A stretch of 64,000 nucleotides of DNA from an uncultured bacterium (lineage in GTDB: Bacteria > Babelota > Babeliae > Babelales > Vermiphilaceae): positions 1 to 64,000 of the forward strand of contig OY969561.1 in NCBI GenBank assembly GCA_963701085.1, given 5' to 3'. The notes beneath the pieces are model-generated. The model was given only the letters and a program-made list of their open reading frames with translations. It made no database searches and was not told the origin of the DNA. The stretch's first letter is position 1; every line of letters begins with the position of its first letter. Positions 2,928-32,026 of the stretch are shown piece by piece. The translations under genes were made by a program, and so were the position numbers.

Positions 2928-4569
2928 TTAAGAGATTATTTTATCATGAATAAGCATACGTTCAGCAACTGATTCAAACAAGGGTACGGATACTGTTGCG
3001 GCATAAATGTTTTTTTGCTGCGCTTCTTTCACAAAAGTTACAATCACTCGTTGATAATCATCTTTTTCCACAATGCCTGCACAGGAGTAGATATTTTTTT
3101 CTGTATCATATTTGCCATCAATGAGCATGTTTGCGGTACCTGTTTTACTCATGACGCGATATCCCTTTATTGCAGCTCTGCGCGCGGTACCGTAGAGAGT
3201 TGTTTTTTCTAATATTTCTTTGATGGTAGTGAGGGACTTCATCTGAGTAGAGTTGTTTACCCCTTTGTGTAGCCTGCCCTTCGAAGCCTTGGCGAAGTAG
3301 GGGCGTCACCTTGTATCCCGTTGCAATTGTACAAAATGCGCAGGCAAGTTGGAGTAATGTTGCAGAAACTTCATATCCATAAGAAAGTGAAATAATTGGA
3401 TTGTTTTGACCAATTTTCAGGAGGGTTAAGGAACCCTGTATTTTCCCCGGGAATTTAATACCTGTTTTGCTGCCAAATCCTAATTGTTTGTAATGATCAT
3501 ACAATTTTGTATCCAATCGTTTTGCAACAATGGCGATGCCAATATTATTTGATAATGCAATAACATCAGTGAATGGAATGGTGCCATGTGCTTGAACCGT
3601 GTTGATAATGCGTCCATCTATGTGCGTAGTGAGACTATTTTTGCAATCAATCAGTTCATCAGGGGTTACTACATCTTCTTCAAGTGCGGCAAGTGCAGCG
3701 CACACTTTCATCACTGAGCCAAGTTCATGAGCATCGGTGATAATTCTGTTTTTAAAGTTTTCACTGCTTGCAGAGTGAGCATTGTTAGGATCAAAATAGG
3801 GGTAAGAAAGCATTGCAATAATTTCACCGTTCTTTGGGTTCATGATAATCACCGCAGCTTCTTTTGCATTAAACTTTTCTACTGTTTGTTGCACGGCTTC
3901 TTGTACTAAGAATTGTAAATCAGCATCGATCGTTAGTTGGAGTGGGTGACCGATATCACCTTGTACGGTTGTTTCTTTTTTGAAATAGTAGTATCCAGAG
4001 CGTGCATCTTTTTCTAAGTGACACGTAGTTGGTTTTCCTGCAAGGGTGTGATTATACAGTAATTCAACACCGAGCAGTCCCTTGTTATCAATGCTCGTTA
4101 GCCCAATCAGTGGGCTTGCTGCCTTGAGGGGGTAGTAGCGTCCCGGTTCAGAGAGTAGGAAAATATCAGGATTTTTTTCTGCGTTAATTATTTCAATTTC
4201 TTGGGGTGATAATCTCCGCTTGATGAACATAAAATGTTTATCTTTATTCTGTTCAAAACGCTTGATAGTTTGTGGAAAATGCTTTTTCAAAAATTTGAGT
4301 GTGCGTTTTTTATCAGCCATCTGTGTTGGTAAAATGAAGGCAGCGATATAATCTTTGTTCATTGCAAGATAGTTACGGCCTGTTCTATCAAAAATTGGCC
4401 CACGCAGTGGTGTTTGTGTGATAGTTACATGATACTGTTGCTCAGCTAATTTTTTATAGAAATCATGCTGTTTTATTTGAATTACGTATAAATTAATACC
4501 AACTAATGCGTACAGTGTGGTGAAGAAAAAGAAAATGATTGTTGAGCGGAGTCTAAAGCTTTGTATCAT
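2928..4569 (-). CDS. ftsI: Class B penicillin-binding protein (FtsI/PBP3-like), frameshifted near 3242 with a compensated pair near 3400-3450
   Basis: N-terminal TM; RGPIFDR, RYYP and GLLGVE motifs; SVMK (SxxK), SNN (SxN), and KTG in the 2928-3242 fragment; follows an FtsL-like gene. Confidence 0.85.
3270..3305 (-). repeat. Structured palindromic repeat (family A) inside the ftsI coding sequence
   Basis: Minus strand CCCTAC-TTC-GCC-AA-GGC-TTC-GAAGGGCAGGC, translated as PLLRQGFEGQA; nearly the same as the tRNA-flanking copies. Confidence 0.8.
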
Positions 4570-4832
4570 GTTGGCAGCTTTTTAACTTGGTTTAAGGCAT
4601 AAGGACGCATTTTTAGTTTATCTTGAGCATATTTTTTAATGCTGTCGCGGTCTTTGAGTGCATAGAGCTCTTGCGTCAGTGTCTGCTTTTTTTCCGTAAG
4701 AGCTGCTATCTTTTTTTCACATTGTTGTTGATGGTAACTGTTTTTGATGAACAGCGTATGTTTATGTACCTGTAAGAAGATCAGTATAATGTGGGTAGTG
4801 ATGACGATGGTGATAAATGAGTTTTTTTTCAT
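4566..4832 (-). CDS. Cell division protein FtsL-like
   Basis: Short N-terminus, one TM segment, coiled coil, IKKYAQDKLKM; overlaps the ftsI start. Confidence 0.6.
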   Translation of the reverse strand: MKKNSFITIVITTHIILIFLQVHKHTLFIKNSYHQQQCEKKIAALTEKKQTLTQELYALKDRDSIKKYAQDKLKMRPYALNQVKKLPT

Positions 4833-4833
4833 G

Positions 4834-5309
4834 TTACCCATTCACAAGCGAATAAATGCAGATATGAGTCATGATGTAGCTATCAAGATTGTCAGCCAGA
4901 TTTTTTAGATAATTATCAGCATCTACTTTTTTATGATATTTGTTTGGGACCATGAAATCATCATTTTCTGGCAATTTCAGAAGGCGTTTTCCACGTTCAA
5001 AATTGTTTTGAAACAACGCAGATGCTTTTTCTAATCTTTCTATTCTGCGCAGCAGCTGTTTGTATTGATTGAGAGACTTCTGATAGTGTGTTTCCTCGTA
5101 TGATATTACATCAGCAGTTGTGCCGCTACACGAAGATAATAGAGATAGTGTTTTTTTTGTCTTCCCCGTTCTCGCATAAGGTATTGTGTATACTTATCTT
5201 TCGCTTGGGTTACTGTTGTACATTGCCTATGTGCTTTAATAGTTGTTTGTAGAATGAGTCGATCAAGACGATCCAGATTTGTTTGAATAGATTCTTCGAC
5301 TGTTTCCAT
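4834..5309 (-). CDS. Hypothetical protein, one gene split by a frameshift near 5110-5150
   Basis: ORF 5106-5309 continues in another frame (ADVISYEETHYQKSLNQYKQLLRRIERLEKASALFQNN) into ORF 4834-5016. Confidence 0.5.
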
Positions 5310-5467
5310 GGCAGTTATTTGAGTTTATATAAATTATTCTTTATGTAGCTTAAACAGATAGAGGGACAAGAGTCAATTGTTTAAAAAAATAAAAAAGCTG
5401 TAACAAAGAGAGCGCAATAGATTGAAGCTTCAAAAAATCACAAGCTGTGAAATTTTAATGCAATAAT

Positions 5468-5869
5468 CTACTGAACAGATTCTATCAATTCAGTAAGGCG
5501 TGTTTTAATAGCGTTAGCTTCAACCTTTTTGCTCGTATTACGTGTGTTATGCGTTTGCTGCTCAAGCTTGCCAAGATAAATTTTTAATTGGTGAATAGAA
5601 TACAGCACATAATGCCGTGCCTCATTAAATTCTTGGCTTGTATCGCAGTCGCCAGCTTGCAGGCATTGTGCTCGTGTAGTAATAAAATATTGTTCGTGTT
5701 TTTCCGCTTGAATAAATAGAGGTTGTCTTTCTTGTGCCTCTTGTTCTGTGTATTGAGGTTTTAAATTCTCTTGCGTTTTAGAGATAATAAGTCCGACAGA
5801 TAATGCATCGCCGTATGCACAATAAGTAACAAATAATAAAGAAACACATACTATTTTTTTGATAAACAT
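5468..5869 (-). CDS. Secreted hypothetical protein
   Basis: Signal peptide; GGGGA RBS; 133 aa. Confidence 0.7.
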   Translation of the reverse strand: MFIKKIVCVSLLFVTYCAYGDALSVGLIISKTQENLKPQYTEQEAQERQPLFIQAEKHEQYFITTRAQCLQAGDCDTSQEFNEARHYVLYSIHQLKIYLGKLEQQTHNTRNTSKKVEANAIKTRLTELIESVQ

Positions 5870-5930
5870 CAGTAATCCCCCTTTTTTGGATTTGACTTAA
5901 AATGAGGTTACTGCAACGGTGTGGCAAGAA

Positions 5931-6884: not shown

Positions 6885-7195
6885 AACAATCCTGCTGATT
6901 TTTTAAAATTGTCAGCAACGATTGCTGCTTGCATCCATGCTTGAAATTCTTTAGTTTTAGTTACATCGTTGTATGCTTTTTCGACCAAAAGAGATGTTTC
7001 TGGAGAGTTATTTGTTTGGTGAAGTATTGTTGCTTGTTTCCACTGTGTGCATTCTGTGGTTTGGGCAAAGGCTTTCGCTTTATTTTCCCTATCTTTAATA
7101 ACAGCACACAAATTTATTGGTTTTTCGCACGCATGTATACGTGTTGTGCTTGTGACAAGAACAAGTAAAAGAGCAGAGGTGTTTTTTATGTTCAT
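6872..7195 (-). CDS. Secreted hypothetical protein with a single copy of the neighbour's repeat
   Basis: Signal peptide; TTECTQWKQATILHQTNNS...VTKTKEFQAW resembles the repeat unit of 5931-6884. Confidence 0.7.
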   Translation of the reverse strand: MNIKNTSALLLVLVTSTTRIHACEKPINLCAVIKDRENKAKAFAQTTECTQWKQATILHQTNNSPETSLLVEKAYNDVTKTKEFQAWMQAAIVADNFKKSAGLLCTQ

Positions 7196-7254
7196 GAGAT
7201 TCCTTGAGTAATTGTTGTGCGTTTTTTATCAATTATATGACATATTTGTGTTTC

Positions 7255-9871
7255 TTACCAATCATATGACATACCAAAATGTATCTCAGAAGCAGATTCA
7301 CTTTGGCTAGGATTTAGTTTGTTTTTGCGTGGATCAATTTTAAAGCCCCAATCGATGTTGACTGGCATTGGTTGCAATAATCTAATACCAATACCAACTG
7401 CTTGACGATAATCAAAATTGTTACTCGTAACAAAAGGCTTATCTGCTGCGGTGACGTAAGGGTTATTAAAACCGGTTCCACCATCATAGAATACAACGGC
7501 TTTCATATTCATATCGGCAGTTATTGGTGCAACAAGTTCAGCGTTCCAGAAGAATGCTCGTGAGCCACCAATAGTATCTCCTTCAAATTGTGGCCCTATT
7601 TGTCCAAACAGAAAACCACGAACGGTTGTTTGACCACCAATATGGTAAAGATCGCCAAAGGGAACAATTCTATTTTTGAATGCAGTTGTTATGCCAAAAT
7701 AGCCATGTAGTCTCAGGATAAGATCATATTCGGCAATGAGTGGTGTAAACCAGCTGGCATCAAGCTCTACTTTGTAGTAACCAATATTGTTGCCAAAACT
7801 TGGGAATGCAAATTTTGTTGCGAATTTCCACTTGTGTCCATACATGGTGTGAACGGGATGGTTACGCGTATCTTGCTCCATTTTGGTTGCTATAAATGCA
7901 AAAGTTCCTGGTGTAAATTCTTTTGTTAAAATTTGCTGATACTGTTCTCTTTCCACTGGGTTTGCAAAGAGTGCTTTTGGAGGATTTGCATCATATTTAA
8001 GATCCTCAACACCTGTACTGAAGAGAATGTTAATATCATGGAAAAGATGATTTCTTGATTGCGTAATGCAGCCAAGCGTGACCGATCCACCGGTAAATTT
8101 TTGGTGAATTGTTTTGACGTGTCTCAATTCGTCATAGACTGGACGTCGGTGGTAAATATCAAACGCGCCCATGATCGGCTTATCAAAGAGCCATGGCTGT
8201 GCAACATGGAGCATTGCTGTTTGTTCATCCTTTGCATACGTAGCACTTAAGTTCAAGTGAACACCGCTACCAAAAAGATTGGTGTCAGAGAGCTCAGTTT
8301 TGACTGAAACACCTGAAATAGCGGATCGCCAATCAGCACCACCTGCACCACCAAATCCAAGTTGTGCACCAAAGTGACCTGTTTTTGTCTCTTTTACGAT
8401 AAGGTCAAGATCAGCTTCTTCTTTGCTCAGGCGTTTGATTTTCCAGTTAACACCTTCACGGGGATCAAAATAACCAAGAGAGGCAACATTACGCTTTGAG
8501 ACATTCATTCTATTTTGCGTAATAAGTTCACCTTCATCAAGAATGATCTTACGACGAATAATTTTGTCACGTGTTTTGTTGTTGCCGCGAATATTAATTT
8601 TGTTCAAATATACTTGATCACCAAGTTCAGAAAAGAAAGAAAGTGACACAGTTTTTGTGTCTTCATTTGGTTGTATTGATGGTTCAATGTGTGCAAAAAT
8701 ATAACCGTAATCACCCCAAATAAGCTCGAGCCGTTTTATTGAGTTGCTAATAGCTTCTCGTGAATAATACATGCCAGGACGGATTGGTAGCATGGCAAGA
8801 AGGTATTGTTCAGAAACATTATCAGTGCCGGGAGCGCTAATTTTATCAATGACATAACGGTCCCCTTCTTCTATTTCAAAGGTAAGGATAATATTTTGTG
8901 TTTCTGGATCTATGTCAACAACAATATCAACAACTTTGGCATGTAAAAATCCGCTATTTTGATAATATTGTTCGATAAAATGTTTATCCCCTTCAAGACG
9001 ATCAGGATGATAATTTCCTGATTTGTCTAAGAAACTTAACAACCAATCTTCTTTGGTGAGGGCAACAGCACGTAAATCTTTGCTGCTGATTGTTTTATTG
9101 CCGATAAAGTGAATTTGCTTCACCGTTGCGGCGATTCCTTCATGAACAGTTAATGTAGCGGTTGCACGATTATTATCATCAAGCGATATCTCTGTTTCTA
9201 TATCCGTTTGGTGATATCCCTTTTCAAGATAAATTTCTTTGATTTTGTTGGCGATTATTTTAAGTTCTTCAGGATCAATTGAGGTGATTTCTTCAAGATT
9301 GATTTTTTTTGCAATATCCTTTTCTGATACTTTTTTATTCCCAACTGTTTTGAGTTCCTTGAGCGGAGATTTTTCCTCAACAATAACATGGAGATTCATA
9401 TAATTGTTATCAACTATCTCACTCATCACTTTTACCGTGCGAAATTTTTTGAGATTGTAATAAAGATTACGAATGAGCGTTCTTGTTTTACGTGGATCAA
9501 ATAGTTCACCAATTTTGTAGGGAACTTGTTTGATGATAGCATCTTTTGATGTAGAGATGTTACCATGCACAAGAATGTTATTAATGCGGCGTGATAGCTT
9601 ATTGATTGTTGTGTTGTTCTTGCTCAATGATATCATCGTCATCATTTTCGGTATCATCATTGCTGATTTCATAATCAGTTTCACTGATTTCATTATAAGG
9701 AGCATGTTTCTCCACGTGTATGAAGAGGTAATAGTGGTATCTGGTGCTTCTTGCCTATCCTCGCTCGTCCTGAGCGTGTCGAAGGAGGAAGGTCGTATGA
9801 TACTACTCAGAAGGAGTAGGTAAGTGCATAGTACAATAATTTCGAGGTCCTTTTTTTACTTTTTGAATCAT
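7255..9871 (-). CDS. bamA: Outer membrane protein assembly factor BamA; true start probably 9871, 5' end disrupted by frameshifts
   Basis: POTRA repeats (GNKTI, YYQNSGF, GNNKTRDKIIRR), VRGF motif, C-terminal FGMSYDW; a signal-like segment upstream of the ORF-track start. Confidence 0.9.
9762..9786 (-). repeat. REP-like repeat (family B) within the bamA 5' coding region
   Basis: CGCTCGTCCTGAGCGTGTCGAAGGA matches the arms at 26608-26681 and the copy at 56122-56147; reads SFDTLRTS on the coding strand. Confidence 0.7.
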
Positions 9872-12433: not shown

Positions 12434-13786
12434 ATGCAATTTACTAATACCCTTAGTGGGAAAAAAGAAGAATTTGTGGTGGGCAAGCAACTGAAAATGT
12501 ATGTCTGCGGGGTCACGCCGTATGATGATGCCCATGTTGGACATGGCAGGTGCTACGTTGCTTTTGATCTGTTGTATAGGATGCTTCGTTCTTTTGGTAC
12601 GTCGGTAACGTATTGCAGAAATTTTACTGATATTGATGATAAAACAATGCGCCGTGCGGAAAAAGAGTTTGGAGATCGTTTACGTTTTAACGAGATTGCC
12701 GATCGTTATATTAAAAATTTTCATCATGATATTGGTAAGCTCAACTGTTTGTCGCCGGATGTTGAACCACGCGTAACTGAAAATATTCCGCAGATTATAG
12801 AATTTATAAAAAAGCTTATTGATAAGGGTGATGCGTATCAGGCTGGCAATGACGTTTATTTCCAGATTGAAAAATTCCCAGAATACGGAAAATTATCCAA
12901 GCAAAAAATAGAAGATTTGTATGCGGGAGTTCGTATTGATGTTTGCCAGCAAAAAAAGAACCCGCTTGATTTTGCATTGTGGAAAGGTGAGCCTGAAGGA
13001 GAGTTTTGGTCAAGCCCTTGGGGTTATGGTCGTCCGGGATGGCATATTGAATGTTCAGTGCTTGCGCGCCTTAATTTGGGTGAGCACATTGATATTCATG
13101 GTGGTGGTCTTGATCTGATATTTCCTCATCATGAAAATGAGATTGCGCAATCAGAAAGTTTGTTTGGTGCGCCATTTTCTCGCATGTGGATGCATAACGG
13201 CATGGTGAACAGTAATAAAGAAAAGATGTCGAAATCGCTCGGCAATTTTTTTGTGCTTCGTGATCTTTATAAACATTTTGATCCAATGGTTATTCGTTAT
13301 TATTTTTTGACGCATCATTATCGCATGCCTATTGAATTTTCTTTTGAAGGTCTGACAAGTGCACAAAAAAGCTATGAACGGTTAATCAGGCTTTGTGCCT
13401 TGTCTTCTGACTTGTCCGCCGAAGCTTTACCGTGTCCTCCGAAGCTTTTAGCGAAGGATGGAGCGAAGGAGGGGATAATCGATCGTATGCTTGAATTTTT
13501 GCAAGACGATCTGAACACTCCAGGGTTGCTTGGTGTTATTTTTGAAAATAGTACTGAGATTGCTCAGAATAAGCATGAATTGGCGGCAGTAAAAAATATT
13601 CTTGTTAACGAACTTGGATTAACATTGCAACCGTTACCAGAGCGCACGGTTGAGCTGACGCCGGAAATTGAAGCGTTGATTGATGGGCGTAATAAAGCAC
13701 GCAGGGAAAAAAATTGGACGCGTGCAGATGAGTTACGTGACCAGTTGCAGCAGTTAGGCTTTGATGTGCATGATGGCAAGATTTAG
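12434..13786 (+). CDS. cysS: Cysteine--tRNA ligase
   Basis: YVCGVTPY, HVGH (HIGH), GRPGWHIEC, DIHGGG, FPHHENE, KMSKS. Confidence 0.97.
   Translation: MQFTNTLSGKKEEFVVGKQLKMYVCGVTPYDDAHVGHGRCYVAFDLLYRMLRSFGTSVTYCRNFTDIDDKTMRRAEKEFGDRLRFNEIADRYIKNFHHDIGKLNCLSPDVEPRVTENIPQIIEFIKKLIDKGDAYQAGNDVYFQIEKFPEYGKLSKQKIEDLYAGVRIDVCQQKKNPLDFALWKGEPEGEFWSSPWGYGRPGWHIECSVLARLNLGEHIDIHGGGLDLIFPHHENEIAQSESLFGAPFSRMWMHNGMVNSNKEKMSKSLGNFFVLRDLYKHFDPMVIRYYFLTHHYRMPIEFSFEGLTSAQKSYERLIRLCALSSDLSAEALPCPPKLLAKDGAKEGIIDRMLEFLQDDLNTPGLLGVIFENSTEIAQNKHELAAVKNILVNELGLTLQPLPERTVELTPEIEALIDGRNKARREKNWTRADELRDQLQQLGFDVHDGKI
13397..13474 (+). repeat. Nested family A repeats inserted in frame in cysS
   Basis: GTCCGCCGAAGCTTT[ACCGTGTCCTCCGAAGCTTTTAGCGAAGGATGG]AGCGAAGGAGG: one hairpin unit inside the loop of another; encodes LSSDLSAEALPCPPKLLAKDGAKEG. 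Confidence 0.8.
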
Positions 13787-14894: not shown

Positions 14895-14904
14895 CATTTA
14901 TCGT

Positions 14905-17620: not shown

Positions 17621-17648
17621 GCGGTAAATTTTATACGCTATTACGTAG

Positions 17649-17683
17649 AAAAAGAGCTTTGGTATTTGCCAAAGCTCTTTTTT
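17649..17683 (+). terminator. Intrinsic terminator
   Basis: AAAAAGAGCTTTGG-loop-CCAAAGCTCTTTTTT; near-identical copy at 21087-21123. Confidence 0.85.
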
Positions 17684-17762
17684 ATTGTTTATTGACTGGC
17701 TACTTATTTTTTTGTTATAGAAAAAAATAATATGTTTTTTCTCATAACAAAAAAGGGTTTTT

Positions 17763-20700
17763 ATGAAACGGCAACATTCTTCACTTTTCTTTTTTCTTGC
17801 GTTTTCTTTATCAGCGCAATCCAATTTTTCGGATGATTTGTATCTTGATCTCAGTAGTGACAATGGTAACTTGGTAAGAGTTGTCGCGGAAATAAGTTCT
17901 TTGGATATGGACGTTAATTCTCCTCTGTGCCAGCTCAATAAATATATTGCTGATGGCAATTCCATTGCATTGAAAGATACTATTTTAGAAATTCTAGCAT
18001 ACGCCGAATCGGTAGTAGAGACAAAAAGCAACAATATTTCACAAGATAGATTAGACACCATCAATGATTCACTCGATACGTTAGCACGTAAAATTAATAA
18101 TGGAGATTTTGCTACAGATGGATGTTGTGAATCTGATCAAAAATTTGACTGTTTTTTTCCACCAGTTTGTTGCCAAGGGCCTCGTGGTCCTCGCGGACAT
18201 AGAGGTCATCATGGACATACTGGCGTAACGGGAGCTACTGGGGTAACTGGTCCTGCTGGCCCAGGTTCAGGAGCAACTGGATCAACTGGTGCTACGGGAG
18301 CTACTGGCGCAACTGGTCCTACTGGCGCTGATGGCTCAACGGTAACTGGTGCCAATGTTGGTGCAGGAACAGGTCTTATTTTTAGAGATAAAACAGGTAT
18401 TTTTATAAACTTTAAGTCGCTTATTCAGGGATCATTTTTTAGTATAACTAATAATGCGAGTGATATAACACTTGATGTAGAAGGTACAAATCTCAATACG
18501 CCAAACACTCTTGTTGCGCGTGATGGCACGGGAAGTTTTGCAGCAGAAGTTATTAGCATGGTTGATGGTGTTGTCAGCGAAAATCTTATTTTAAGCACAG
18601 AACCAAGCACAGCAACAGCAGGAAATGTTATTAAAGGTGCAAGTAGGTTTATTCACGATTTTGGAACAAATAATACATTCGTAGGTATAGACGCTGGTAA
18701 TTTTACATTAACTGGCACGCAAAATAGTGGTTTTGGTACAAATGCTCTTACAGCTTTAACAACAGGTACTGGTAACACTGCTCTTGGGTATAATACATTA
18801 GCAGCTACTACAACAGGGAGTAATAATACTGCTGTTGGGGATGCACTGAGTGCTAATATTACCGGTAGCAATAATACTGCGCTTGGAGCTAACACATTAA
18901 ATCTTAACACAGAATCATTTAATACTGCGATTGGTGCAAATACCCTTGCATCTAACGTAACAGGTACTGATAATACAGCAGTTGGTTATAATGCATTGAC
19001 TAATAATACTGATGTTCAAATTACCGCTGTTGGCTCTGGTGCATTGCAAAACTTTGTTAATGGTGATGGCGGTGAGAATGTAGCAGTTGGTTACCAGGCA
19101 ATAAATGCAAACGTAGGAGGTAATAGTCTTACTGCAGTGGGTTGGACAGCATTAGCCTTAGATGTAACAACTACTGTAGGTAATAATACGGCAGTTGGCT
19201 GGGCGGCACTTGCGACCAATACAACAGGTACTGATAATACAGCTCTGGGGAATGATGCATTATCGAGTAATACCACGGGTATTACTAATACAGCTGTGGG
19301 AAGTCATGCATTAGCTGGAAACACCATTGGTACTAATAATACAGGTGTAGGAACTAGTGCTTTAAATTCAAACACAACTGGTACTAATAATACAGGTGTA
19401 GGAAATAATGTTTTAGCTGCAAACACAACAGGTATTAATAATACAGCGATAGGTGACAGTGCACTCAGTGCAAATATCACCGGTCAGGGCAATACTGCTG
19501 TTGGAGAATCTGCACTTGCAAGCAACATCACAGATCTTACCACTGCTGTTGGATATTTTTCATTAAATCAAAATACTACTGGAGCAGGTAATACTGCAGT
19601 GGGTAGTAATACATTGGCAGTGAATGTAACAGGTAATGATAATACAGCCGTTGGTCTCAATGCTCTTGCAGCTAATACTGATAATCAAAATGTTGCTGTT
19701 GGATCTGGTGTATTACAAAATTATGTTAATGGTGGCGGTCAGCATGTGGCAGTTGGTTATCAAGCATTAAATTCCAATGTTACAGGAAGTGGTAACACTG
19801 CGGTTGGTTATCAAGCACTACAAGCAGATGTAACAGTTTCTCCTTCTGGTTTTAATACTGCAGTTGGTTATCAAGCATTAACAGCAAATACAACAGGTCA
19901 TGATAATACTGCAAGCGGTGATAGTGCATTAGTTGCTAATACAACAGGGGTACAAAATACTGCTGTGGGGAGTGGTTCATTATTCACTAACATCACAGGT
20001 TCTGACAATACTGCAGTTGGATATAATGCATTGGTTGTTAATACTGACAATGAAATTACCGCAGTTGGTTCAGGTGCATTGCAAAGTTATACGGTTAATG
20101 TTGCCGGTGGCCAAAATGTAGCTGTTGGTTATAATGCATTGAGTGCAAATACTGTTGGTGCTAATAATACGGCAGTTGGTTGGTCAGCGTTACTCAACGA
20201 TATAACAGTTGAAACGGGTAGTAATACAGCTGTTGGTTCTGCTGCACTTTTTACCAATATAAACGGTTTGAATAATACAGCTGTGGGCGACCATTCATTA
20301 TTCGCTAATACCATTGGTGCTTTTAATACAGCTGTGGGGGCTGCTTCATTAACCAGCAATATCACTGGTAATAATAATACAGCTGTGGGAAATAGCGCAT
20401 TAGCAAGTAACGCCACTGGTAATGATAATACAGCTCTTGGCTGTAATGCTCTTTTAGCTAATTCAATAGGTATACAAAACACTTGCATTGGTAGTAGCGC
20501 TCTTGGGCTGGTGACAGGAAATCATAATATTGCTCTTGGCTATAATGCAGGTGGTGCAGCAACAACAGGAAGTAACGATATTTATATTGGCCATGTTGGT
20601 GTTGCAGCTGAATCTGCTGCTATTCGTATTGGTACTCTTGGTACACAGACAACATGTTTTGTCCAAGGAATTAGCGGGGTTACTGTTGCAGCATCTGTAC

Positions 20701-21062
20701 CTGTTCTCATTGATGTGAATGGCCAACTTGGTACTATTCTTTCATCAGAAAGATTCAAACACAACATAGCAGATATGGGTAATGATTCTTCAAGTATTCT
20801 TAATCTTCGTCCCGTAACATTTGCATATAACAGTGATGCATCAGAAACAAAACAATATGGGTTAATTGCTGAAGAAGTTGATCAAGTATTTCCTTCTATT
20901 GTTGTAAGAGATGAAGATGGAAATCCTTATACTGTTCAATATCAAGTGCTTCCAGCACTTTTATTGAATGAGTTGATAAAACAACAAGCAGCACTAGAGC
21001 AGCACCAAGCAGCAATAGAAAATATGAATGATCGTTTAGCGGCACTTGAAGCGCAAAATTAA
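17763..21062 (+). CDS. Secreted trimeric fibre-like protein 2 (paralogue; shorter collagen, more NTAVG repeats, Peptidase_S74)
   Basis: Same architecture; long near-identical blocks shared with fibre 1. Confidence 0.9.
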
Positions 21063-21086
21063 GCGGTACATCATACGCTATTACGT

Positions 21087-21123
21087 AAAAAAAGAGCTTT
21101 GGTTTTTGCCAAAGCTCTTTTTT
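21087..21123 (+). terminator. Intrinsic terminator
   Basis: AAAAGAGCTTTGG-loop-CCAAAGCTCTTTTTT. Confidence 0.85.
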
Positions 21124-21272
21124 ATTGTTTTCTGTAGCGCTATTGTGAAATTTATTGTGTAAATATGGAAAAATAGAGTTAACTGATTTTTTTGTTGTGT
21201 TGATTAGCTACTTATTTTTTTGTTATGGAAAGAAATAACATGTTTGTTCTTATAACAAAAAAAAGGGTTTTT

Positions 21273-24200
21273 ATGAAACGGCAACATTCTTCATTTTTCT
21301 TTTTTCTTGCGCTTTTTTTATCAGCGCAACCAAATTCTTCGAATGATGTGTATCTTGATCTTAGCGGTGACCATGACAATTTGATAGACATTGTAGAGGA
21401 AATAAGTTCATGGGATGAAAATCAAAATTCTCTTTTGTGGCAATTACAGAGACATATTGCAGAGGGTAATCTGATAGTGCCTCAAGATTTTGTTGTAGAG
21501 GCCTTGGCGTACGCTGAAAATATTGTTGAAAAACAACGTAAAAAACTTTCATCAAATAAATTTAATTATATTAATGATGTTCTTGATCACTTAGCATGCG
21601 TCATTGAAAATGGTGATTTAAATCATGTTGTGCATAGAAAAGATGCGAATATAGATTTTGATGATGCATTGTTTCCCTGCCCGCGTGGCCCTCGTGGGCA
21701 TCGTGGACACCGTGGATATCAAGGAGCTACCGGTGCAACGGGGGCTTATGGTGATGGTGGTACAGGAGCAACAGGTGCTACGGGTGCAATTGGATCAACA
21801 GGAGCTACTGGGTCAACTGGTGCAACGGGGCCTGCAGGTGCCACGGGAACTTTTGATCCTTCAAGTTGTATAGACAGTTTATGCGTTAATAATTTTTCTG
21901 TTGTGAATGAAATAATTAGTGGGCCGTTATCAACGTGTGATGTTTTTGTTGGATGTAATTTGTTTTTAAATGATTCAGCAAGTTCTACGGTTGGTAATGT
22001 TATTAAAGATGGTCAACCATTTATGCATACATTCCCAGGTACTAATTCAGCAAATACATTTGTGGGTGAAAGTGCAGGGAATTTCAGCATGACTGCTGGT
22101 GAAAACACAGCTGTTGGATTCCAAGCTCTTATCGTTAATATAGATGGTTTTCAGAATACAGCAGTTGGAAGCTACGCGCTTAATTCAAATATAGGATTTG
22201 GAGGAGGCATCTTTGGTGGATCTGCTAATACTGCAGTTGGTAATAATGCGTTGGGGAGTAATACAACTGGTTATAATAATACTGCGGTTGGTAATAATGC
22301 TTTAGGCAGTAATGTTACTGGTATTAATAATGTGGCGGTTGGTGCTAATGCTTTATTTATTAGCACAGAAGGTTCAAATAATATTGCAATGGGATATCTT
22401 GCTCTACAAAATAATACAACGGGCAGTGATAATATTGGAATCGGTATTTCTGCTTTAGCAGCAAATCAAACTGGTAGTTCTAATGTTGCTATTGGATCTC
22501 AAGCGCTTGCGAATAATACAACAGGATTTAATACTGCTATTGGATTTAATGCATTACAAAATAATACAATCGGAGATCAAAATACTGCCATAGGACAAAG
22601 CGCGCTTTCTTCTAATACAGCAGGATATCAAAACACTGCAGTCGGACAAGATGCACTTGCTGCTAATACTTTAGGTACTCAAAATACTGCTGTTGGGCAA
22701 GATGCATTGCTCGCTAATACGACTGGTTCTTTTAATACTGGTATTGGGCAAACGACACTTTTATCTAATACTGTTGGTATTAATAATACAGCGGTGGGAT
22801 ACTCTGCATTATCAAGCAATACAACAGGAACTGATAATACAGCAATTGGGTGTAATGCGCTTGCTAACAATGATGCAACTGTTGGTAATACCGCAGTTGG
22901 CAGTGGTTCATTAGCGGCAAATACAACTGGTGTTAACAATACTGCAGTTGGTTATCAAACACTTTTAAATAATACAGTGGGTATTGCTAATACAGCAGTT
23001 GGTTACCAAGCGCTTATAGCAAATACATCAGGTTATTCTAATGTTGCTGTTGGACAAAATGCTCTTCAATTAAATGATGCTGGATATATGAATACAGCTG
23101 TTGGTACTAATGCATTAGAATTTAATACAGAAGGTTCTCAAAACAGTGCTTTTGGCGCAGGAGCATTGCAAGAAAATACGACTGGTGTCAATAATACTGC
23201 CATTGGGCTTGGAGCATTATCATTTAATGTAACAGGAGTTAATAATACAGCTGTTGGATTACTCGCTTTGAATGCTAATCTTGTTGATCATAATACTGCA
23301 GTTGGACACAATGCATTAGCAAATAATACAACAGGTTTCCAAAATACAGCAGTTGGACAAAATTCACTTAATGCTAATTCAACAGGATGGCAAAATACCG
23401 CCGTTGGACAAGGAGCATTGCAATCAAATACCATAGGCATTCAAAATACAGCAATGGGACAAAATGCGCTTTCAAGTAATACTTTTGGTTCTTCTAATGT
23501 TGCTGTTGGTCAAAATGCTTTAGCAAGCAATACAACTGGTTCTTCGAATACTGCTCTTGGAGAAAATGCATTATTGTTAAATACATTTGGAACAAATAAT
23601 ACAGCAGTTGGACAGGATGCACTTCAATTAAATATTATTGGTGTTAATAATACCGCCGTTGGTGTTAATGCATTACAAAATAATGTAGCAAATAATAATA
23701 GTGCGTTTGGAGAATATGCGCTTGCAAATGATACATCCGGTGCAAACAATACCGCAGTTGGGCAAGCTGCTCTTGGTTTGAATACAGCGGGAAATAATAA
23801 CGTTGCTGTTGGATTTAATGCATTAACTTTTAGTATAGGTTCTTTTAATACAGCAGTTGGTGTTAATGCATTGCTTAATAATATAGTTGATGGTAACACT
23901 GCCGTTGGAAACAATGCACTTTTAACGAATTCAACTGGTTTTAATAATGTCGCTGTTGGAAATAGTGCATTACAAAATAACTTAACGGGTAGTAATAATA
24001 CAGCAATGGGTGTAGGTGCATTGTTCGCAAATGGTACTGGTATTAATAATACCGCAATAGGATACAATGTGTTATCAAGTAATACAACAGGTACAGATAA
24101 TACTGCAGTTGGTTATAATGCTCTTGTTGCAAATGATGCAACTGTTGGTAATACAGCAGTAGGTAGCGGTGCATTAGAATCCAATACCGCGGGTGCACCA

Positions 24201-25253
24201 AATACAGCTGTTGGATATAATGCGCTTAATACAAATTCAACAGGCATTGGTAATACAGCAGTTGGTAGTAACGCATTATCATTGAATATGAATAATCTTA
24301 ATACCGCAGTTGGGCAAGATGCGTTAAAATTAAATTCAACAGGTACACAAAATACTGCCATGGGATCAGGTGCGTTGACATTTAATAGTGTCGGGGTAAG
24401 TAATACCGCTGTTGGAAGAAATGCATTGAATAATAATACAGGAGGTAATGCTAATACCGCGATAGGACAATCATCAATGGCAACTAATGGAACAGGTGGT
24501 GGTAATACAGCTGTTGGTGATGAAACATTACAGTTTAATGTTGGTGGTTCAAGTAATACAGCTATTGGTCAGCTTGCGTTAAATAATACCGATGCTGATA
24601 ATAATACGGGGGTAGGTTATAGAGCGATGTTTGCTAATACAACAGGTACGCTTAACACAGCAATTGGAAGATTTGCATTAGCCAATAACACAATAGGTAA
24701 TAATAATGTTGTTCTTGGAGATTCAGCATTAGCAAGCAATACAACAGGAAATAATAATATTGCAATTGGTACTGATGCTGGAGGAACATTAACAACAGGA
24801 AGTAATAATATTTACATTGGTTTTAATATCGGTGCAGTTTCATCATCTGAAAATGACATTACACGTATTGCTAATATTTATGGTACAACAACAGGAAGTG
24901 TAACGACATTATCAGTATTAGTTGATAATACAGGGCAACTTGGTATAGCTGCTTCAACAAAAAGAGTGAAACATGCTATTGCAGATATGAGTAATGAATC
25001 AGCAGCTATTTACAATCTTCGCCCGGTAACATTTGCTTACAATAGTGATGCTTCTGAAACAAAACAGTATGGGTTAATAGCTGAAGAAGTTGATGCAATA
25101 TTCCCTGGTATTGTGGTAAGAGATGCTGAAGATGAACCGTTTACTGTGCAATATCATGTGTTACCAGTATTGTTGTTGAATGAAGTTCAAAAATTATATG
25201 CAAGAATTGAAAATATGAATGATCGTTTGATTGCGTTGGAACAGCAAGATTAA
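21273..25253 (+). CDS. Secreted trimeric fibre-like protein 3 (most divergent paralogue; start MKRQHSS at 21273)
   Basis: Same start context as fibres 1 and 2; collagen tract, Cys-containing linker, very long NTAVG repeat array, [23 protein letters not shown]. Confidence 0.9.
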   Translation: MKRQHSSFFFFLALFLSAQPNSSNDVYLDLSGDHDNLIDIVEEISSWDENQNSLLWQLQRHIAEGNLIVPQDFVVEALAYAENIVEKQRKKLSSNKFNYINDVLDHLACVIENGDLNHVVHRKDANIDFDDALFPCPRGPRGHRGHRGYQGATGATGAYGDGGTGATGATGAIGSTGATGSTGATGPAGATGTFDPSSCIDSLCVNNFSVVNEIISGPLSTCDVFVGCNLFLNDSASSTVGNVIKDGQPFMHTFPGTNSANTFVGESAGNFSMTAGENTAVGFQALIVNIDGFQNTAVGSYALNSNIGFGGGIFGGSANTAVGNNALGSNTTGYNNTAVGNNALGSNVTGINNVAVGANALFISTEGSNNIAMGYLALQNNTTGSDNIGIGISALAANQTGSSNVAIGSQALANNTTGFNTAIGFNALQNNTIGDQNTAIGQSALSSNTAGYQNTAVGQDALAANTLGTQNTAVGQDALLANTTGSFNTGIGQTTLLSNTVGINNTAVGYSALSSNTTGTDNTAIGCNALANNDATVGNTAVGSGSLAANTTGVNNTAVGYQTLLNNTVGIANTAVGYQALIANTSGYSNVAVGQNALQLNDAGYMNTAVGTNALEFNTEGSQNSAFGAGALQENTTGVNNTAIGLGALSFNVTGVNNTAVGLLALNANLVDHNTAVGHNALANNTTGFQNTAVGQNSLNANSTGWQNTAVGQGALQSNTIGIQNTAMGQNALSSNTFGSSNVAVGQNALASNTTGSSNTALGENALLLNTFGTNNTAVGQDALQLNIIGVNNTAVGVNALQNNVANNNSAFGEYALANDTSGANNTAVGQAALGLNTAGNNNVAVGFNALTFSIGSFNTAVGVNALLNNIVDGNTAVGNNALLTNSTGFNNVAVGNSALQNNLTGSNNTAMGVGALFANGTGINNTAIGYNVLSSNTTGTDNTAVGYNALVANDATVGNTAVGSGALESNTAGAPNTAVGYNALNTNSTGIGNTAVGSNALSLNMNNLNTAVGQDALKLNSTGTQNTAMGSGALTFNSVGVSNTAVGRNALNNNTGGNANTAIGQSSMATNGTGGGNTAVGDETLQFNVGGSSNTAIGQLALNNTDADNNTGVGYRAMFANTTGTLNTAIGRFALANNTIGNNNVVLGDSALASNTTGNNNIAIGTDAGGTLTTGSNNIYIGFNIGAVSSSENDITRIANIYGTTTGSVTTLSVLVDNTGQLGIAASTKRVKHAIADMSNESAAIYNLRPVTFAYNSDASETKQYGLIAEEVDAIFPGIVVRDAEDEPFTVQYHVLPVLLLNEVQKLYARIENMNDRLIALEQQD

Positions 25254-25313: not shown

Positions 25314-25324
25314 AATTCGATTTA

Positions 25325-25821: not shown

Positions 25822-26565
25822 ATGCATAAAAATTTATTATTGTTATTTGTGGTAGCTAATTGTGCAATGCTTCAGGCGGGTGAATATAATATGGCTGATG
25901 AAAAAGTTTATGCTGATTATCAAAGTCAGCAAGCTGCTTTGTATCGATCAGCATTGATTAATGCTCTGTCTGATAATGACCAAGCTATTGATGATCAAGA
26001 TAAAAGTAATGCTGATGTAAATGATCAAGAAGAAAAAGATAGCAGAAAAAAACAATATGATGGCATTCTTGGTTACTGGTCAACTGAGCCGACTATTGAA
26101 TCTGAAACAGGACGTAAATTTTATCAATATACACAGCATAAATCGACTAAAAATTCAATAAACAAACAGTTTTCACAAAAAGCTAAAAATGATCAAGACA
26201 CATTTAATACAGAAGTCTTGCCAAATTTTAAACGTAGGTTAGAAGATGATCGTTATTTTATTAATACCTACTGTGTGTCTGCATTAAAAGATTGTCGTAA
26301 AGATCTTGCTTGTTATGATAAAAAAGGTTTATCCCCACAAGTTTTCACTAATCCTCATTTTGATGAACAGCATGAAGAAATGTTGTATGCCTGTGCGGCA
26401 AAATTTGCATCAGAACATGGTGTTAATCTGACAGCTGAAGAGATGAGAATGATTGCTGAACACAACCCAGCAACACAAGAATTTTTTAATGGTATCCAAG
26501 CTGGAAATAAAGCGATATCTGCGGTGCGTCATGAAATTTTGAATACAGATGTGAAAAAAGATTAA
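25822..26565 (+). CDS. Secreted hypothetical protein
   Basis: AGGA RBS, then MHKNLLLLFVVANCAMLQA signal peptide. Confidence 0.7.
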   Translation: MHKNLLLLFVVANCAMLQAGEYNMADEKVYADYQSQQAALYRSALINALSDNDQAIDDQDKSNADVNDQEEKDSRKKQYDGILGYWSTEPTIESETGRKFYQYTQHKSTKNSINKQFSQKAKNDQDTFNTEVLPNFKRRLEDDRYFINTYCVSALKDCRKDLACYDKKGLSPQVFTNPHFDEQHEEMLYACAAKFASEHGVNLTAEEMRMIAEHNPATQEFFNGIQAGNKAISAVRHEILNTDVKKD

Positions 26566-26607
26566 GATATAGCACCATTTGTTAAGTTGTACTCAAAATA
26601 TCTAACC

Positions 26608-26681
26608 GCGCTCGTCCTGAACTTGTTGAAGGATATCCTCGAGCGCTCGAAGAAATCCTTCAACAAGTTCAGGACGAGCGC
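26608..26681. repeat. REPIN-like inverted pair of family B repeats between convergent genes
   Basis: Perfect 27-bp arms GCGCTCGTCCTGAACTTGTTGAAGGAT / ATCCTTCAACAAGTTCAGGACGAGCGC with a central palindrome TCGAGCGCTCGA. Confidence 0.85.
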
Positions 26682-26726
26682 AGGAAAAAATTAGTTTAAA
26701 AGCTGCAGTGATATTTCTGTTGGCAG

Positions 26727-27344
26727 TTATTTTTTGTTAACGGAACACGGAGGGCATGATTTTGAGTTGTCTTTTTTGTCTTTGCTCGTATCACGGTACG
26801 TATAACCTTCAATAGTCAGTGTTTTGAGTGCTGATAATGGTATGATTTTTTCTTGTGGCCCAGCAGTATCAATGCCATCGCAATAGACAGGTGTTTTGCG
26901 TTCCAGGAGATAGTAATTTTTTGTGTTACTTTTAGTGGTAACTACTACTTCTAAATATTCTACTTTTTGTTGATGTTCATTTTTTTGATAATACCAAACC
27001 GTGTTGGGTGATGGGACTTGAATTTCGGCGGTTTCATCAAAATCAACGGTGCCTTTGACAAAGTCTGTAGCAGGATTATCATCAAGTTTAATTTCGAGAT
27101 GTTGTGAATCTTTGTTCATGACAGGCGCAGTATGTGTTGCTGGTTTTGCGTACATGATGATTTGCTTGCATTTGTTATCAATGGAAATATTATCAACGAC
27201 ATATTCTTGTCCTTGGTGGGTGGTGAGTTTTCCAGAAAAATTCACCGGCTGCTTGAGATTTTTGGCCGTTGTTGAACCAAATGAGGTACATTTAATGATG
27301 TTTGCAGAAAGTAGTGAACTGATCAGGAGAAGTACATAAATCAT
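26727..27344 (-). CDS. Secreted or lipoprotein-like hypothetical protein
   Basis: AAGGA RBS, hydrophobic N-terminus, 205 aa. Confidence 0.7.
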   Translation of the reverse strand: MIYVLLLISSLLSANIIKCTSFGSTTAKNLKQPVNFSGKLTTHQGQEYVVDNISIDNKCKQIIMYAKPATHTAPVMNKDSQHLEIKLDDNPATDFVKGTVDFDETAEIQVPSPNTVWYYQKNEHQQKVEYLEVVVTTKSNTKNYYLLERKTPVYCDGIDTAGPQEKIIPLSALKTLTIEGYTYRDTSKDKKDNSKSCPPCSVNKK

Positions 27345-27504
27345 ATTTATTCCTTTAGTTTGCGTGTTTAAGCTATTTTTAACACAGGTGTCTTCTGTTA
27401 TGCAAGTGTATTGTATGCTAAGCTAAAATCATTGTATAATGAGTTATATATCGCGTAGAGTATTAAGCAAATCTGTTAATTAAAAAACCGAAGGGATACA
27501 CAGT

Positions 27505-28197: not shown

Positions 28198-28244
28198 AAT
28201 TGTTAGAAATAAAAAAATAAAAGAGTAGTAAGGGAGTATTTATT

Positions 28245-29990: not shown

Positions 29991-30011
29991 AACAGGATAA
30001 TCTGAATAGCG

Positions 30012-30042
30012 AAAAAGGGATGCGTAACAGCATCCCTTTTTT
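30012..30042. terminator. Bidirectional intrinsic terminator
   Basis: AAAAAGGGATGC-loop-GCATCCCTTTTTT. Confidence 0.85.
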
Positions 30043-30060
30043 ATTTATTCCGATTGTTAT

Positions 30061-30996
30061 TTATAGCTTTTCAAAAAGTTTGCAATCATCTTCTTGTGAT
30101 AAAATGCCAAGGGTAGTCAATTCTTCAGCAAGTTGAGATGGATTTTTAAACAGTATACCATGCAGCGTGAGATCTGTTGTTGATTGTAGTTTATTAAAGG
30201 CATCAACATTTGTTTTTTTATCATCAATAAAAATCATACAAGTAATATTTTTTTTAGTCTTGCTATGGGCGATCATACGCTCATAAAACGCTGGTTCGGG
30301 TTTTTTTCCTGGTAGATGAATAATGTTGTCTGATTCTTGTATATTCATAGTTTCATCAACTAACTGTTTGTAATTGTTAGGAGTAGTTGATCGGTCCATA
30401 AAGAGCTGAATATCATTGAGCAGTGCGGTACTGTTTCCTGGATGTGCAACAAAGACTTTACTCGGAATTTTACTGAATTTATGGCCAAAATTTTTTACGG
30501 TTAAATCGTAAGCAATGCGATCTTTATTAGTCGCAAAATTTATGTTATACCCTTTTGCTTTTTTGAGATACTTATAAATTTTTCTTGTTCCTGGAATAAA
30601 TTGACGTGAACTTTCGAGAGTTTCAATAAGCCATGGTACATAAATGGTTAAGTTTGTATCTTTCATACCATGATATAAAAAATGAAAAGTGATACCTTCT
30701 ATTGCATCACCACGTTTATCATATAACGCTTCCTTAATACCATCTTTATCATACGCATAAGCTTGCTGTACTTTTAAAAGTGAATATAAATAAGCCAATG
30801 TAGTAAATGGATTAAGGGATATGCCGCCAAGTATAAGTTTGTATGTTGAATATGAAGATTCGATAAGTACTTCGTCAATATCAGAGTAGATATCCACGTT
30901 TTCTGGTTTAAATTGTTTATCCATTGATGCTATGGTGCCAGAAGAAAGAATGAGCAAAATAAATAGTTTTATACATTTTTTCAAGACAATCCCCAT
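30061..30996 (-). CDS. Secreted HAD-superfamily hydrolase-like protein
   Basis: DIDEVL (motif I), ATNK (II), KKP (III), IFIDD (IV); signal peptide. Confidence 0.75.
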   Translation of the reverse strand: MGIVLKKCIKLFILLILSSGTIASMDKQFKPENVDIYSDIDEVLIESSYSTYKLILGGISLNPFTTLAYLYSLLKVQQAYAYDKDGIKEALYDKRGDAIEGITFHFLYHGMKDTNLTIYVPWLIETLESSRQFIPGTRKIYKYLKKAKGYNINFATNKDRIAYDLTVKNFGHKFSKIPSKVFVAHPGNSTALLNDIQLFMDRSTTPNNYKQLVDETMNIQESDNIIHLPGKKPEPAFYERMIAHSKTKKNITCMIFIDDKKTNVDAFNKLQSTTDLTLHGILFKNPSQLAEELTTLGILSQEDDCKLFEKL

Positions 30997-31063
30997 TTTT
31001 TTATATATACAGGCAGCATATCGAGTTGTAATGGGAATTGTCTAGGTTTGTTTATGCAGTACT

Positions 31064-32026
31064 TTATCTTGCAAAAATAGAGTGAAAGTTTTGTTTTATT
31101 TTACCGCTAATTCCTGGATAACGAATTTCATCCAAAAGTGTATGATCTTTTTCTTCTGATACCATTCCAGCTTTTTTAATATCTTCAGCAAATTGATCTA
31201 AGTTGTTTTCATTATAGAGTATGCCAAGACGGAGCTTGGTGGTATCTTTTTGTAGCGCATTAAAGGCATCAACGTTCTCTTCATTGTCATCAATAAAGAT
31301 CATGTCATTGTCAGCACCAAGATTGTTTACTACATAGGTAAAGAACTGGTTTGCTGGTTTTTTGCTTGGTACATGCACAATTGTTGAGGTTTCTTTTAAG
31401 TTGATAGCTTTATGGACCATATTTTTATAGTGTACGGGCGTTGTTGGTTTATCTGCAAAGATTTGTAATTGCGAGATTGCAGTATCTTCACTTTGTGGCT
31501 CGGCTACAAATACTTTATCGACCATGTTGGGAATTTCATTACCTAATGCTTCTATAGAAAGATCATAGAGCATACGATCTTTATTAGTGGCAATAACAAA
31601 ATGATAGCCGTCTTCTTTGAGGTGATGATAAAGGTTGTCAATTGGTTGATTAAGGCAACGAGATTTTCCAATATATTCCACTAATCCTGGAACATATGGG
31701 GCAAGTGTTGGATAGCGTCTACCATAATCAAGAAGTCTTAAAGGAAGATTACCCAATTTACGGGGTTTTTTTTCTGTAGGCCCGCCCTTCGTAGCTTCAG
31801 CGGAGTAGGGTTCGTCAGAAATATCTTTTGTAGACTTTTTGCTTTTGAATAAATTTTCAAGAGGTTGTAAGTAAGCAAGTAAGCCAAGGAAGGATGATTT
31901 TTTTATCAATACATCATCAAAGTCTGTGATGAGAATGGGTTTCTTTTTTGCCACAGGTGTTTCTATTGGCAGCGCTGTGCTGCAAAAGATGCTAGCAAGA
32001 AGAAGTGTGCTATATATTTTTTTCAT
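31064..32026 (-). CDS. Secreted HAD-superfamily hydrolase-like protein (tandem paralogue)
   Basis: DFDDVL, ATNK, KKP, IFIDD; signal peptide. Confidence 0.75.
   Translation of the reverse strand: MKKIYSTLLLASIFCSTALPIETPVAKKKPILITDFDDVLIKKSSFLGLLAYLQPLENLFKSKKSTKDISDEPYSAEATKGGPTEKKPRKLGNLPLRLLDYGRRYPTLAPYVPGLVEYIGKSRCLNQPIDNLYHHLKEDGYHFVIATNKDRMLYDLSIEALGNEIPNMVDKVFVAEPQSEDTAISQLQIFADKPTTPVHYKNMVHKAINLKETSTIVHVPSKKPANQFFTYVVNNLGADNDMIFIDDNEENVDAFNALQKDTTKLRLGILYNENNLDQFAEDIKKAGMVSEEKDHTLLDEIRYPGISGKIKQNFHSIFAR
31778..31810 (-). repeat. Family A repeat in frame within the HAD paralogue
   Basis: Minus strand CCCTAC-TCC-GCT-GA-AGC-TAC-GAAGGGCGGGCC; encodes PYSAEATKGGP. Confidence 0.75.

Follow-up and report, generated by a model that had tools for sequence, protein, structure and literature searches.

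Introduction

Rickettsia palindromic elements (RPEs) are described, in the passage of PMC10969869 that cites Ogata 2000, as dispersed palindromic repeats of ~150 bp, each of which encodes a conserved peptide. Here we analyze the initial 64 kb (referred to throughout as the window) of a genome of the phylum Dependentiae that consists of one contig of 1,198,634 bases (1.2 Mb). In the window, two families of GC-rich palindromic units, designated A and B, lie both between genes and in frame within them. The genome, that of a small intracellular bacterium, is AT-rich, with a GC content of about 36% (34-40%), and the nearest named relative of its cysteinyl-tRNA synthetase (CysRS) is encoded by a Dependentiae (TM6) genome labelled Vermiphilaceae, with 57% identity. 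Compared by description and not by sequence, and as far as the cited account of RPEs extends, the A and B units resemble RPEs in forming many dispersed palindromic copies in a reduced intracellular host and in lying in frame within unrelated housekeeping genes, where they are absent from orthologues and tolerated (here cysS, a HAD-like gene, PepF, PfkB, RecD2 and Mur ligase). They differ from the RPE, a module of ~100-150 bp in that account, in their size, since an A unit measures 30 nt (10 codons), its composites 60-63 nt and a B double unit ~75 nt, and also in being nested in one another and in the phylum that harbors them. The A and B units are a much shorter form of a known type of in-frame palindromic insertion, in-frame elements being already established in Rickettsia.

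Several other systems bear comparison. The cyanobacterial SDR of Elhai et al. 2008 are reportedly repeats of less than ~30 nt with short inverted arms, intergenic as well as genic, nested and with no known transposase; the units analyzed here are also nested and also occur inside genes, but both the phylum and the sequences are unlike those of the SDR. REPs are extragenic by definition. REP and REPIN sequences are characterized, in the portion of PMC3116915 consulted, as short imperfect palindromes of 20-40 nt, present in hundreds of copies, mostly extragenic and often arranged head to head. The B double units are likewise head to head, and 73% of the B units are intergenic, often as inverted pairs, but the RAYT-type Y1 transposase has no match here, and 23 B units and 38 A matches lie inside open reading frames (ORFs). 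MITEs typically span 50-500 bp and have terminal inverted repeats and target-site duplications, whereas the unit described here is 30 nt long and shows no clear target-site duplication. MITEs such as ERIC, BOX, Correia and QMITE1 are presented in the relevant part of PMC10969869 as non-autonomous repeats able to fuse in frame with ORFs of the host. An organellar system of unrelated sequence offers a further parallel: in the AT-rich mitochondrial genomes of yeast, the mobile GC clusters are short GC-rich palindromes, some of which lie in frame in a protein gene. Searches of the Dependentiae literature by palindrome and hairpin terms, including the main texts of genome papers, returned no description of such repeats, and a literature search with typical peptide strings of the units turned up no paper containing them.

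Results

Hairpin units gained in cysS and a HAD-like gene

The best explanation of the data, to which we give a probability of roughly 0.78, is that A and B are GC-rich hairpin repeats, very short and non-autonomous, which behave like miniature RPEs and which have spread in this genome and its relatives, where they are probably still spreading. Under this explanation, insertions would fall anywhere in the genome, mobilized by some host or trans-acting activity that recognizes the hairpin; the inserted segments would be translated, and selection would retain those units that lie in a tolerated frame within surface loops or linkers. Spreading DNA followed by selection is consistent with the presence and absence of copies at the same site among close species, with the nesting of units, with repeated hits on the same loops, with inserts of whole-codon length and with skewed use of reading frames. 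The comparison relied on ten further genomes from the same genus (including G002-G007), among which copies are present in some species and absent from others at the same site. The genes and units of the window that bear on this explanation are listed below.

2928..4569, minus strand: ftsI (PBP3), divided between two ORFs (3145-4569 and 2928-3242)
3274..3303, plus strand: family A unit in ftsI, 30 nt, read LLRQGFEGQ (within PLLRQGFEGQA) on the minus strand
7255..9871, minus strand: bamA, with start, signal peptide and linker in differing frames
9762..9786, plus strand: single hairpin unit of family B, CGCTCGTCCTGAGCGTGTCGAAGGA, in the linker that follows the signal peptide of BamA, read SSFDTLRTS on the minus strand
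12434..13786, plus strand: cysS (cysteinyl-tRNA synthetase), intact, 450 residues
13411..13473, plus strand: composite of two nested A units in cysS, 63 nt
26597..26692, no strand assigned: double unit of family B between genes, forming an almost perfect palindrome (about 75-96 nt)
31064..32026, minus strand: secreted HAD-like paralogue, 320 residues
31781..31810, plus strand: family A loop variant in the HAD-like gene, 30 nt, read PYSAEATKGG

A first-pass annotation of the window had placed palindromic units in ftsI, bamA, cysS and the HAD-like gene and had proposed that they are inserted in frame. All four are where it had put them, with borders now refined to 3274-3303, 13411-13473 and 31781-31810 for family A and 9762-9786 for family B, and they belong to real repeat families that are read in different strands and frames without stops, as the annotation had also stated. 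Each of the four window units is free of stops in four or five of the six frames, and the 76-nt B palindrome in four.

In cysS, the composite consists of an outer unit of 30 nt (13411-13429 plus 13463-13473) that carries in its loop an inner unit of 33 nt (13430-13462), and it is translated as DLSAEALPCPPKLLAKDGAKEG. Between conserved anchors, the gene measures 165 nt, versus 123-135 nt in 10 of 11 orthologues, which makes the protein 10-14 residues longer; the eleventh orthologue (G002) measures 174 nt and has a nested A pair of its own at the same place, with the inner unit inserted at another point. An AlphaFold model of CysRS built from 12 orthologues (mean pLDDT 78.7) places residues 323-347 in a loop between helices 304-322 and 348-357, with pLDDT values below 50 at 326-334 and 336-345, and the segment is thus predicted to be a disordered loop. 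This makes cysS a clean instance of what the first-pass annotation had led one to expect.

The HAD-like gene also shows a gain. Its anchors lie 123 nt apart, versus 87 and 93 nt in its closest orthologues, those of G007 (69% identity) and G005 (68%), neither of which has the unit, and the difference corresponds to a clean gain of 30 nt, or 10 residues. The unit is composed of leader CCCG, arm CCCTTC, the inner sequence GTAGC-TTCA-GCGGA and arm GTAGGG, with arms identical to those of the ftsI unit. The G005 orthologue presents a different A unit at another site, read SYFAKATKDA. Pfam yields no match for the paralogue itself (31064-32026), and the neighboring gene (30061-30996) has a weak HAD_2 match just under the curated cutoff.

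Two repeat families with distinct hairpin anatomy

Among the frequent GC-rich 11-mers of the genome, those at the top of the list are without exception fragments of A or B. The exact 15-mer core of family A, GAAGCCTTGGCGAAG, has 23 copies in the genome, and the same core written backwards, used as a control, has none. Family A was further delimited with a structural scan requiring the core and at least four pairing positions among five flanking positions on each side, with GC-rich flanks, which returned 106 matches versus 9-14 in five shuffles; when all five positions were required to pair, 38 matches remained, versus 0-2 in shuffles. The three A units of the first-pass annotation (ftsI, cysS and HAD-like) are all among the matches of the structural scan. 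With a sequence profile of family A, the ftsI unit scored E=3e-8, but the cysS unit reached no better than E=0.07 and the 31781 unit escaped detection at E<=1, which is a weak point; the assignment of the cysS and 31781 units to family A therefore rests on the structural scan and on their shared arms. A looser pattern scan for A was dropped, its 165 matches comparing with 180-201 in shuffles.

The typical A unit is 30 nt long and comprises a 4-nt leader, CCTG or CGTG, followed by a 26-nt hairpin with 6-bp arms, GAAGC, a loop of four or five bases, and GCGAA; inside the arms, three purines on each side form a symmetric GAA/GAA internal loop, followed by a GC-GC stem. The leader CCTG or CGTG precedes 42 of 69 A copies, and the ftsI unit conforms to the scheme (leader CCTG, arm CCCTTC, GAAGC-CTTG-GCGAA, arm GTAGGG). 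The two arms covary: on average 4.62 of six positions pair, versus 3.73 (maximum 4.04) in 500 shuffles of partners among copies, and the pair types change from copy to copy (CG/AT, TA/GC, CG/TA). Nested units, found in cysS, PepF, PfkB and several intergenic copies, provide readable borders: five inner units measure 30 nt, two measure 33 nt, and one, in an intergenic copy, measures 31 nt.

Family B has the core CGCTCGYCCTGA…GAAGG, with 228 genome matches at one mismatch or fewer and 93 matches of the 14-mer core. Its hairpin, CCTGA…GAAGG, follows the sequence CGCTCGY and either has variable inner hairpins or is paired head to head in a double unit of ~75 nt. Double units of this form also lie in frame in two other genes of the genome, those for RecD2 and a Mur ligase. 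The palindrome at 26597-26692 folds at z = -12.3 and is the only unit to stand out among those folded. Rfam assigns to this region (26550-26740) only generic hairpin models, far under their gathering scores, and a search of a plasmid collection with the B palindrome returned no match.

Units within housekeeping genes across the genome

Well inside ORFs of at least 150 residues, 38 A matches and 23 B units were identified. A Pfam scan of twenty unit-bearing ORFs matched 15, of which 14 are housekeeping genes, and the genes with internal seed matches are UvrD, PepA, DprA, PBP2, DnaX, MnmG, Lon, DeaD, Mur ligase, RecD2, PepF, Ddl, PriA and PfkB. The frame is open across the internal units of UvrD, PepA, DprA, PBP2, DnaX, MnmG, DeaD and PriA, and the remaining six genes were aligned with five congeners. 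PepF carries a clean 63-nt insert (126 nt versus 63 nt), absent in all five relatives, and PfkB a clean 60-nt insert (168 nt versus 105-108 nt), absent in the four relatives that aligned. A B double unit lengthens RecD2 by 34 residues and Mur ligase by 37 to 48 residues relative to five of five relatives, reading ARPE(L/P)VEG…LQQVQGER in both. In Ddl, one region is variable and carries inserts that differ among three species. The proposal that an element like the RPE, and much shorter, adds peptide segments to core proteins is therefore supported in cysS, the HAD-like gene, PepF, PfkB, RecD2 and Mur ligase, with about 10 to 35 extra residues per gene-internal insertion. Different species have acquired insertions independently, in the FtsI loop (G004, G003 and G006), in the CysRS loop (G002), in Ddl and in the HAD-like gene of G005.

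Two side observations concern orthologues of these genes. The Lon orthologue of G007 (G007:C1:475812-478070, L107) has six internal stops (3 TGA, 1 TAG and 2 TAA); either the gene is broken or the assembly is poor at this locus. The Ddl of G007, G004, G005 and G006 (L088-L091) lies in open frames of 736-826 residues, versus 499 here; it may be fused to a neighbor in the relatives or split in this genome.

Gene-internal inserts with readable borders measure 30, 33, 60 or 63 nt, and since all of these lengths are multiples of three, the reading frame of the host gene is kept. Frame usage is also skewed: 19 of the 38 internal A matches share one strand and frame and read ..S/Y-F/Y-A-K/E-A-S/T.. 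(binomial 2e-6). Both features argue against the idea that the gene-internal units are removed, either as intervening sequences or through bypass, by the time translation is complete and so leave the proteins unchanged. Nothing direct favors such removal, apart from the units being hairpins and from the frame breaks near two of them, whereas codon-multiple lengths and biased frame use would not be expected of excised units. The inserts are stop-free in the frame used, and a 31-nt unit does exist, in an intergenic copy; the ftsI break lies ~35 nt from its unit, and two others, 95-145 nt away, are homopolymer length differences. Removal is for these reasons hardly credible.

The same skew could be taken to mean that the segments are kept for their peptides, as a linker or interaction motif under protein-level selection of which the DNA repeats would be a mere consequence. 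Half of the internal A matches (19 of 38) read ..SFAKAS.., and B double units read alike (ARPE-L/P-VEG…LQQVQGER) in RecD2, Mur ligase, DprA and others. The same DNA is, however, read in at least five of the six frames in different genes, at least half of the copies are intergenic, and the covariation of the arms is a nucleotide-level feature; moreover, the CysRS segment is predicted to be disordered and the hosts are unrelated housekeeping enzymes. Taken together, these points make selection for the peptides very unlikely as the origin of the repeats.

Frame breaks in ftsI and bamA

The claim of in-frame insertion holds for cysS and the HAD-like gene and fares differently in the other two genes of the window, where the units are in frame locally and the genes' own frames are broken, a circumstance missed in the first-pass annotation. 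In ftsI, the sequences ATGYKVTP and GKQLYSD flank the unit in a single frame and both align with orthologues, so that the unit is locally in frame. The FtsI loop is 18 residues long with the unit and 14-19 residues long in seven aligned orthologues free of inserts; since these lengths overlap, a net insertion cannot be demonstrated in ftsI. The first-pass annotation had named an equally long peptide in orthologues lacking the hairpin as the finding that would speak against it, and for ftsI this is in part what was found. The loops of G004, G003 and G006 contain larger in-frame inserts with family-B-like peptides. In bamA, the unit shares its local frame with the signal peptide, and the flanks align, the downstream one only weakly in a variable linker. 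The linker of BamA is 5-6 residues longer than in three relatives and is highly variable, which leaves weak support for insertion there. The comparison with orthologues and AlphaFold models that had been proposed as a check thus revealed an insertion in a loop of CysRS and a clean gain in the HAD-like gene, no demonstrable net insertion in ftsI, and a region too variable to judge in bamA.

The frame breaks are numerous. Three frame changes interrupt ftsI in the window, and its transpeptidase domain is divided between the two ORFs according to Pfam. One change is a single extra base near 3238-3241, ~35 nt from the unit; the two others, at about 3448 and 3398, lie 95-145 nt away and put the invariant PPENWSKQS out of frame. 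All relatives' BamA proteins begin M-(T/I)-(E/Q)-K-V-K-K-G, followed by the signal peptide, and the homologous start in the window, MIQKVKKGPRNYC (MIQKVKKG, ATG at 9871), lies in a frame that differs from that of the signal peptide and the unit. The frame changes near 9831-9835, the acidic linker lies in yet another frame, making at least three changes in total, and the first standard start in the main frame of bamA is at 9705, downstream of the unit. The frame changes at 3398, 3448, 3238-3241, 9831-9835 and about 9600-9720 cluster in the first 10 kb of the contig.

A near-identical public contig (covering 3273-3661, 389 nt, with two other letters different and a depth of about 3) contradicts the window at two of these sites, with one base fewer at 3398 and an extra G after 3448, both in homopolymers; given the positions of these two single-base differences, PPENWSKQS would return to frame. 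The public contigs are short and shallow, coverage by a near-identical one excludes 3238-3241 and 9831-9835, and the best run contains 0.26 of the sampled words; public contigs from other copies stop at 3272 and 3302-3305. Assembly errors are suspected in ftsI and bamA because the two ftsI breaks are homopolymeric and are contradicted by the near-identical contig, albeit one shallow contig, and such errors, not connected with the elements, are the most likely cause of the breaks in both genes, judging from the sequence. If ftsI and bamA were instead real pseudogenes, the units could be marks of decaying genes. The three ftsI changes would fit this possibility, as would those of bamA, which number at least three, and the break near 3238-3241, which is outside any long homopolymer. 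Both genes are nevertheless intact in all examined relatives with contig coverage, the near-identical contig differs by one base in each of the two homopolymers, which by position would restore the PPENWSKQS frame, and other long genes of the genome (cysS, PepF and Lon) are intact, so that gene decay appears quite unlikely.

Intergenic copies and a possible role in cis

Outside genes, the units are strongly enriched. In a genome-wide ORF map of 1131 ORFs, which cover 87.6% of the genome and leave ~12% outside, 53 of 105 structural A matches and 133 of 181 B units (73%) fall outside ORFs, versus ~12% expected. In the window, two A units adjoin tRNA genes.

56337..56365, plus strand: family A unit adjoining the 3' end of a tRNA gene (56365-56452, minus strand)
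60319..60346, minus strand: family A unit adjoining the 3' end of a tRNA gene (60237-60319, plus strand)

The stem of each of these two units opens with the apparent encoded CCA end of the tRNA, and similar flanks are found at two other A copies, near genome positions 242808 and 659954, where no tRNA scan was made. An A hairpin at the 3' end of a tRNA may be a processing signal, an end signal or a preferred target. Rfam models matched only tRNAs in the window, with nothing at 13380-13500. The spacers of the tRNA cluster at 55826-56146 are packed with A-like and B units, and a spurious ORF of 109 residues (55876-56205) crosses these units.

These observations raise the question of whether the hairpins are mainly RNA or DNA elements acting in cis, at transcript ends or in processing, stability or protein binding, with the copies in genes being tolerated or regulatory. 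Such a role would accord with the predominance of intergenic B units (133 of 181, or 73%), with the two A units that adjoin tRNA 3' ends and have stems starting from the apparent CCA, as well as with the two further copies with similar flanks. The covariation of the arms implies that the hairpin itself is maintained. An identical core recurs in 33 of 80 Dependentiae genera (45 of 121 genomes), and in GC-rich viral contigs 21 of 81 core matches have covarying arms; both observations point the same way. No U tract follows the units, however, no Rfam family matches them, and the folding energy of a single A unit is no better than that of shuffles, while the nesting of units, and their presence in one species and absence from a close one at a given gene site, typify spreading DNA and not site-specific signals. 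A role in cis is compatible with the spread of A and B as mobile hairpin repeats, and as the principal explanation we consider it possible, though doubtful.

Observations that weigh against the spread of the units as mobile repeats

Several results weigh against the view that A and B are mobile hairpin repeats that insert and are retained. The genome-wide counts of gene-internal and intergenic units are based on a crude ORF map, and about 10 of the 106 structural A matches are expected by chance. Single A units, like the single B unit, fold no better than shuffles, with z from -0.8 to +0.5, and the case for the A hairpin accordingly rests on covariation and not on energy. The Lon seed match (family B, genome position 861211) was a false positive, its alignment showing no insertion. 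We infer the translation of the inserted segments from the sequence.

Evidence on the mechanism of mobility is also adverse. For the Y1/RAYT transposase (Pfam Y1_Tnp, PF01797), the genome has no match, whereas the control was positive in 6 of the 14 known genomes. The same absence was found for DDE_Tnp_1 (PF01609), rve (PF00665) and the zinc-ribbon domain of TnpB (PF07282), only these families and Y1 having been tried. At three clean insertions, the only sign of a target-site duplication is CC or CCC, which is ambiguous, and the units show no replication-strand bias (23 versus 23).

Finally, simple insertion is not the whole story, because the length is unchanged in ftsI and in the PfkB gene of G007, and because cysS gains only 30-42 nt net from a 63-nt composite. 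In ftsI, the unit occupies a position held in relatives by unrelated loop sequence, without any change in length. The PfkB of G007 (L095) carries an A unit, GCCCTTCGTAGCTTTAGCGAAGTAGGGC, in a stretch only 3 nt shorter than the unrelated sequence of other species, and in sequence it is a replacement, not an insertion, as in the ftsI gene of the window. A net gain of 30-42 nt in cysS means that part of the ancestral loop sequence has gone. Equal-length replacement suggests a copy-and-replace mechanism or, alternatively, that the loop was trimmed afterwards.

Distribution beyond this genome

Across the sampled Dependentiae, the A core is present in 45 of 121 genomes and 33 of 80 genera, and the B core in 19 of 121 genomes and 12 of 80 genera, both distributions being patchy; the controls of the two cores gave zero or one match in the same sample. 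In IMG/VR, the frequency of the A core is about equal to a rough estimate of chance. When the flanks of the matches were considered, 21 of 81 examined A-core matches had five or six pairing arm positions, versus about 2.5 expected by our own estimate, and these paired-arm cores are often preceded by CTTG or CCTG. Since these viral matches have pairing arms and often the same leader, the A motif probably extends beyond the phylum Dependentiae. The flanks of the examples L112, L125, L136, L143 and L152 have a GC content of 53-76%, unlike Dependentiae DNA. One viral contig, L143, has two A cores 18 nt apart.

The 21 of 81 viral matches and the patchy 33 of 80 Dependentiae genera point to a broader possibility, one that we regard as somewhat unlikely: A and B may be instances of widespread ultra-short mobile hairpins, of whole-codon length and with few stops, that are moved by an activity other than a classical transposase, for example by hairpin-directed template switching at replication or repair, and that are a general source of loop insertions in bacteria. 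Were this so, such hairpins would be the source of ..FAKAS.., ..LRQGF.. and ..RPEPVEG.. peptides in many phyla as well as in phages.

Implications

The data point to in-frame colonization of essential genes by selfish or structural repeats outside Rickettsia as well, in an unrelated phylum of intracellular parasites, with an element about five times shorter than the RPE. At 30 nt, the unit would be among the smallest candidates for mobile DNA, and it would offer a system for the spread of hairpins without a recognizable transposase as well as a test of how proteins tolerate random 10-residue loop insertions. For the annotation of Dependentiae genomes, it is relevant that the units inflate ORFs, make spurious N-terminal extensions and break short-read assemblies.

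The window further contains three tandem large paralogues (14987-17620, 17763-21062 and 21225-25253, spanning 14987-25253), in which collagen-like Gly-X-Thr triplets of 9 nt each form arrays and a 51-nt (17-residue) repeat following the pattern NTAVG..NAL..NTTG recurs dozens of times. They look like surface fibre or adhesin proteins.

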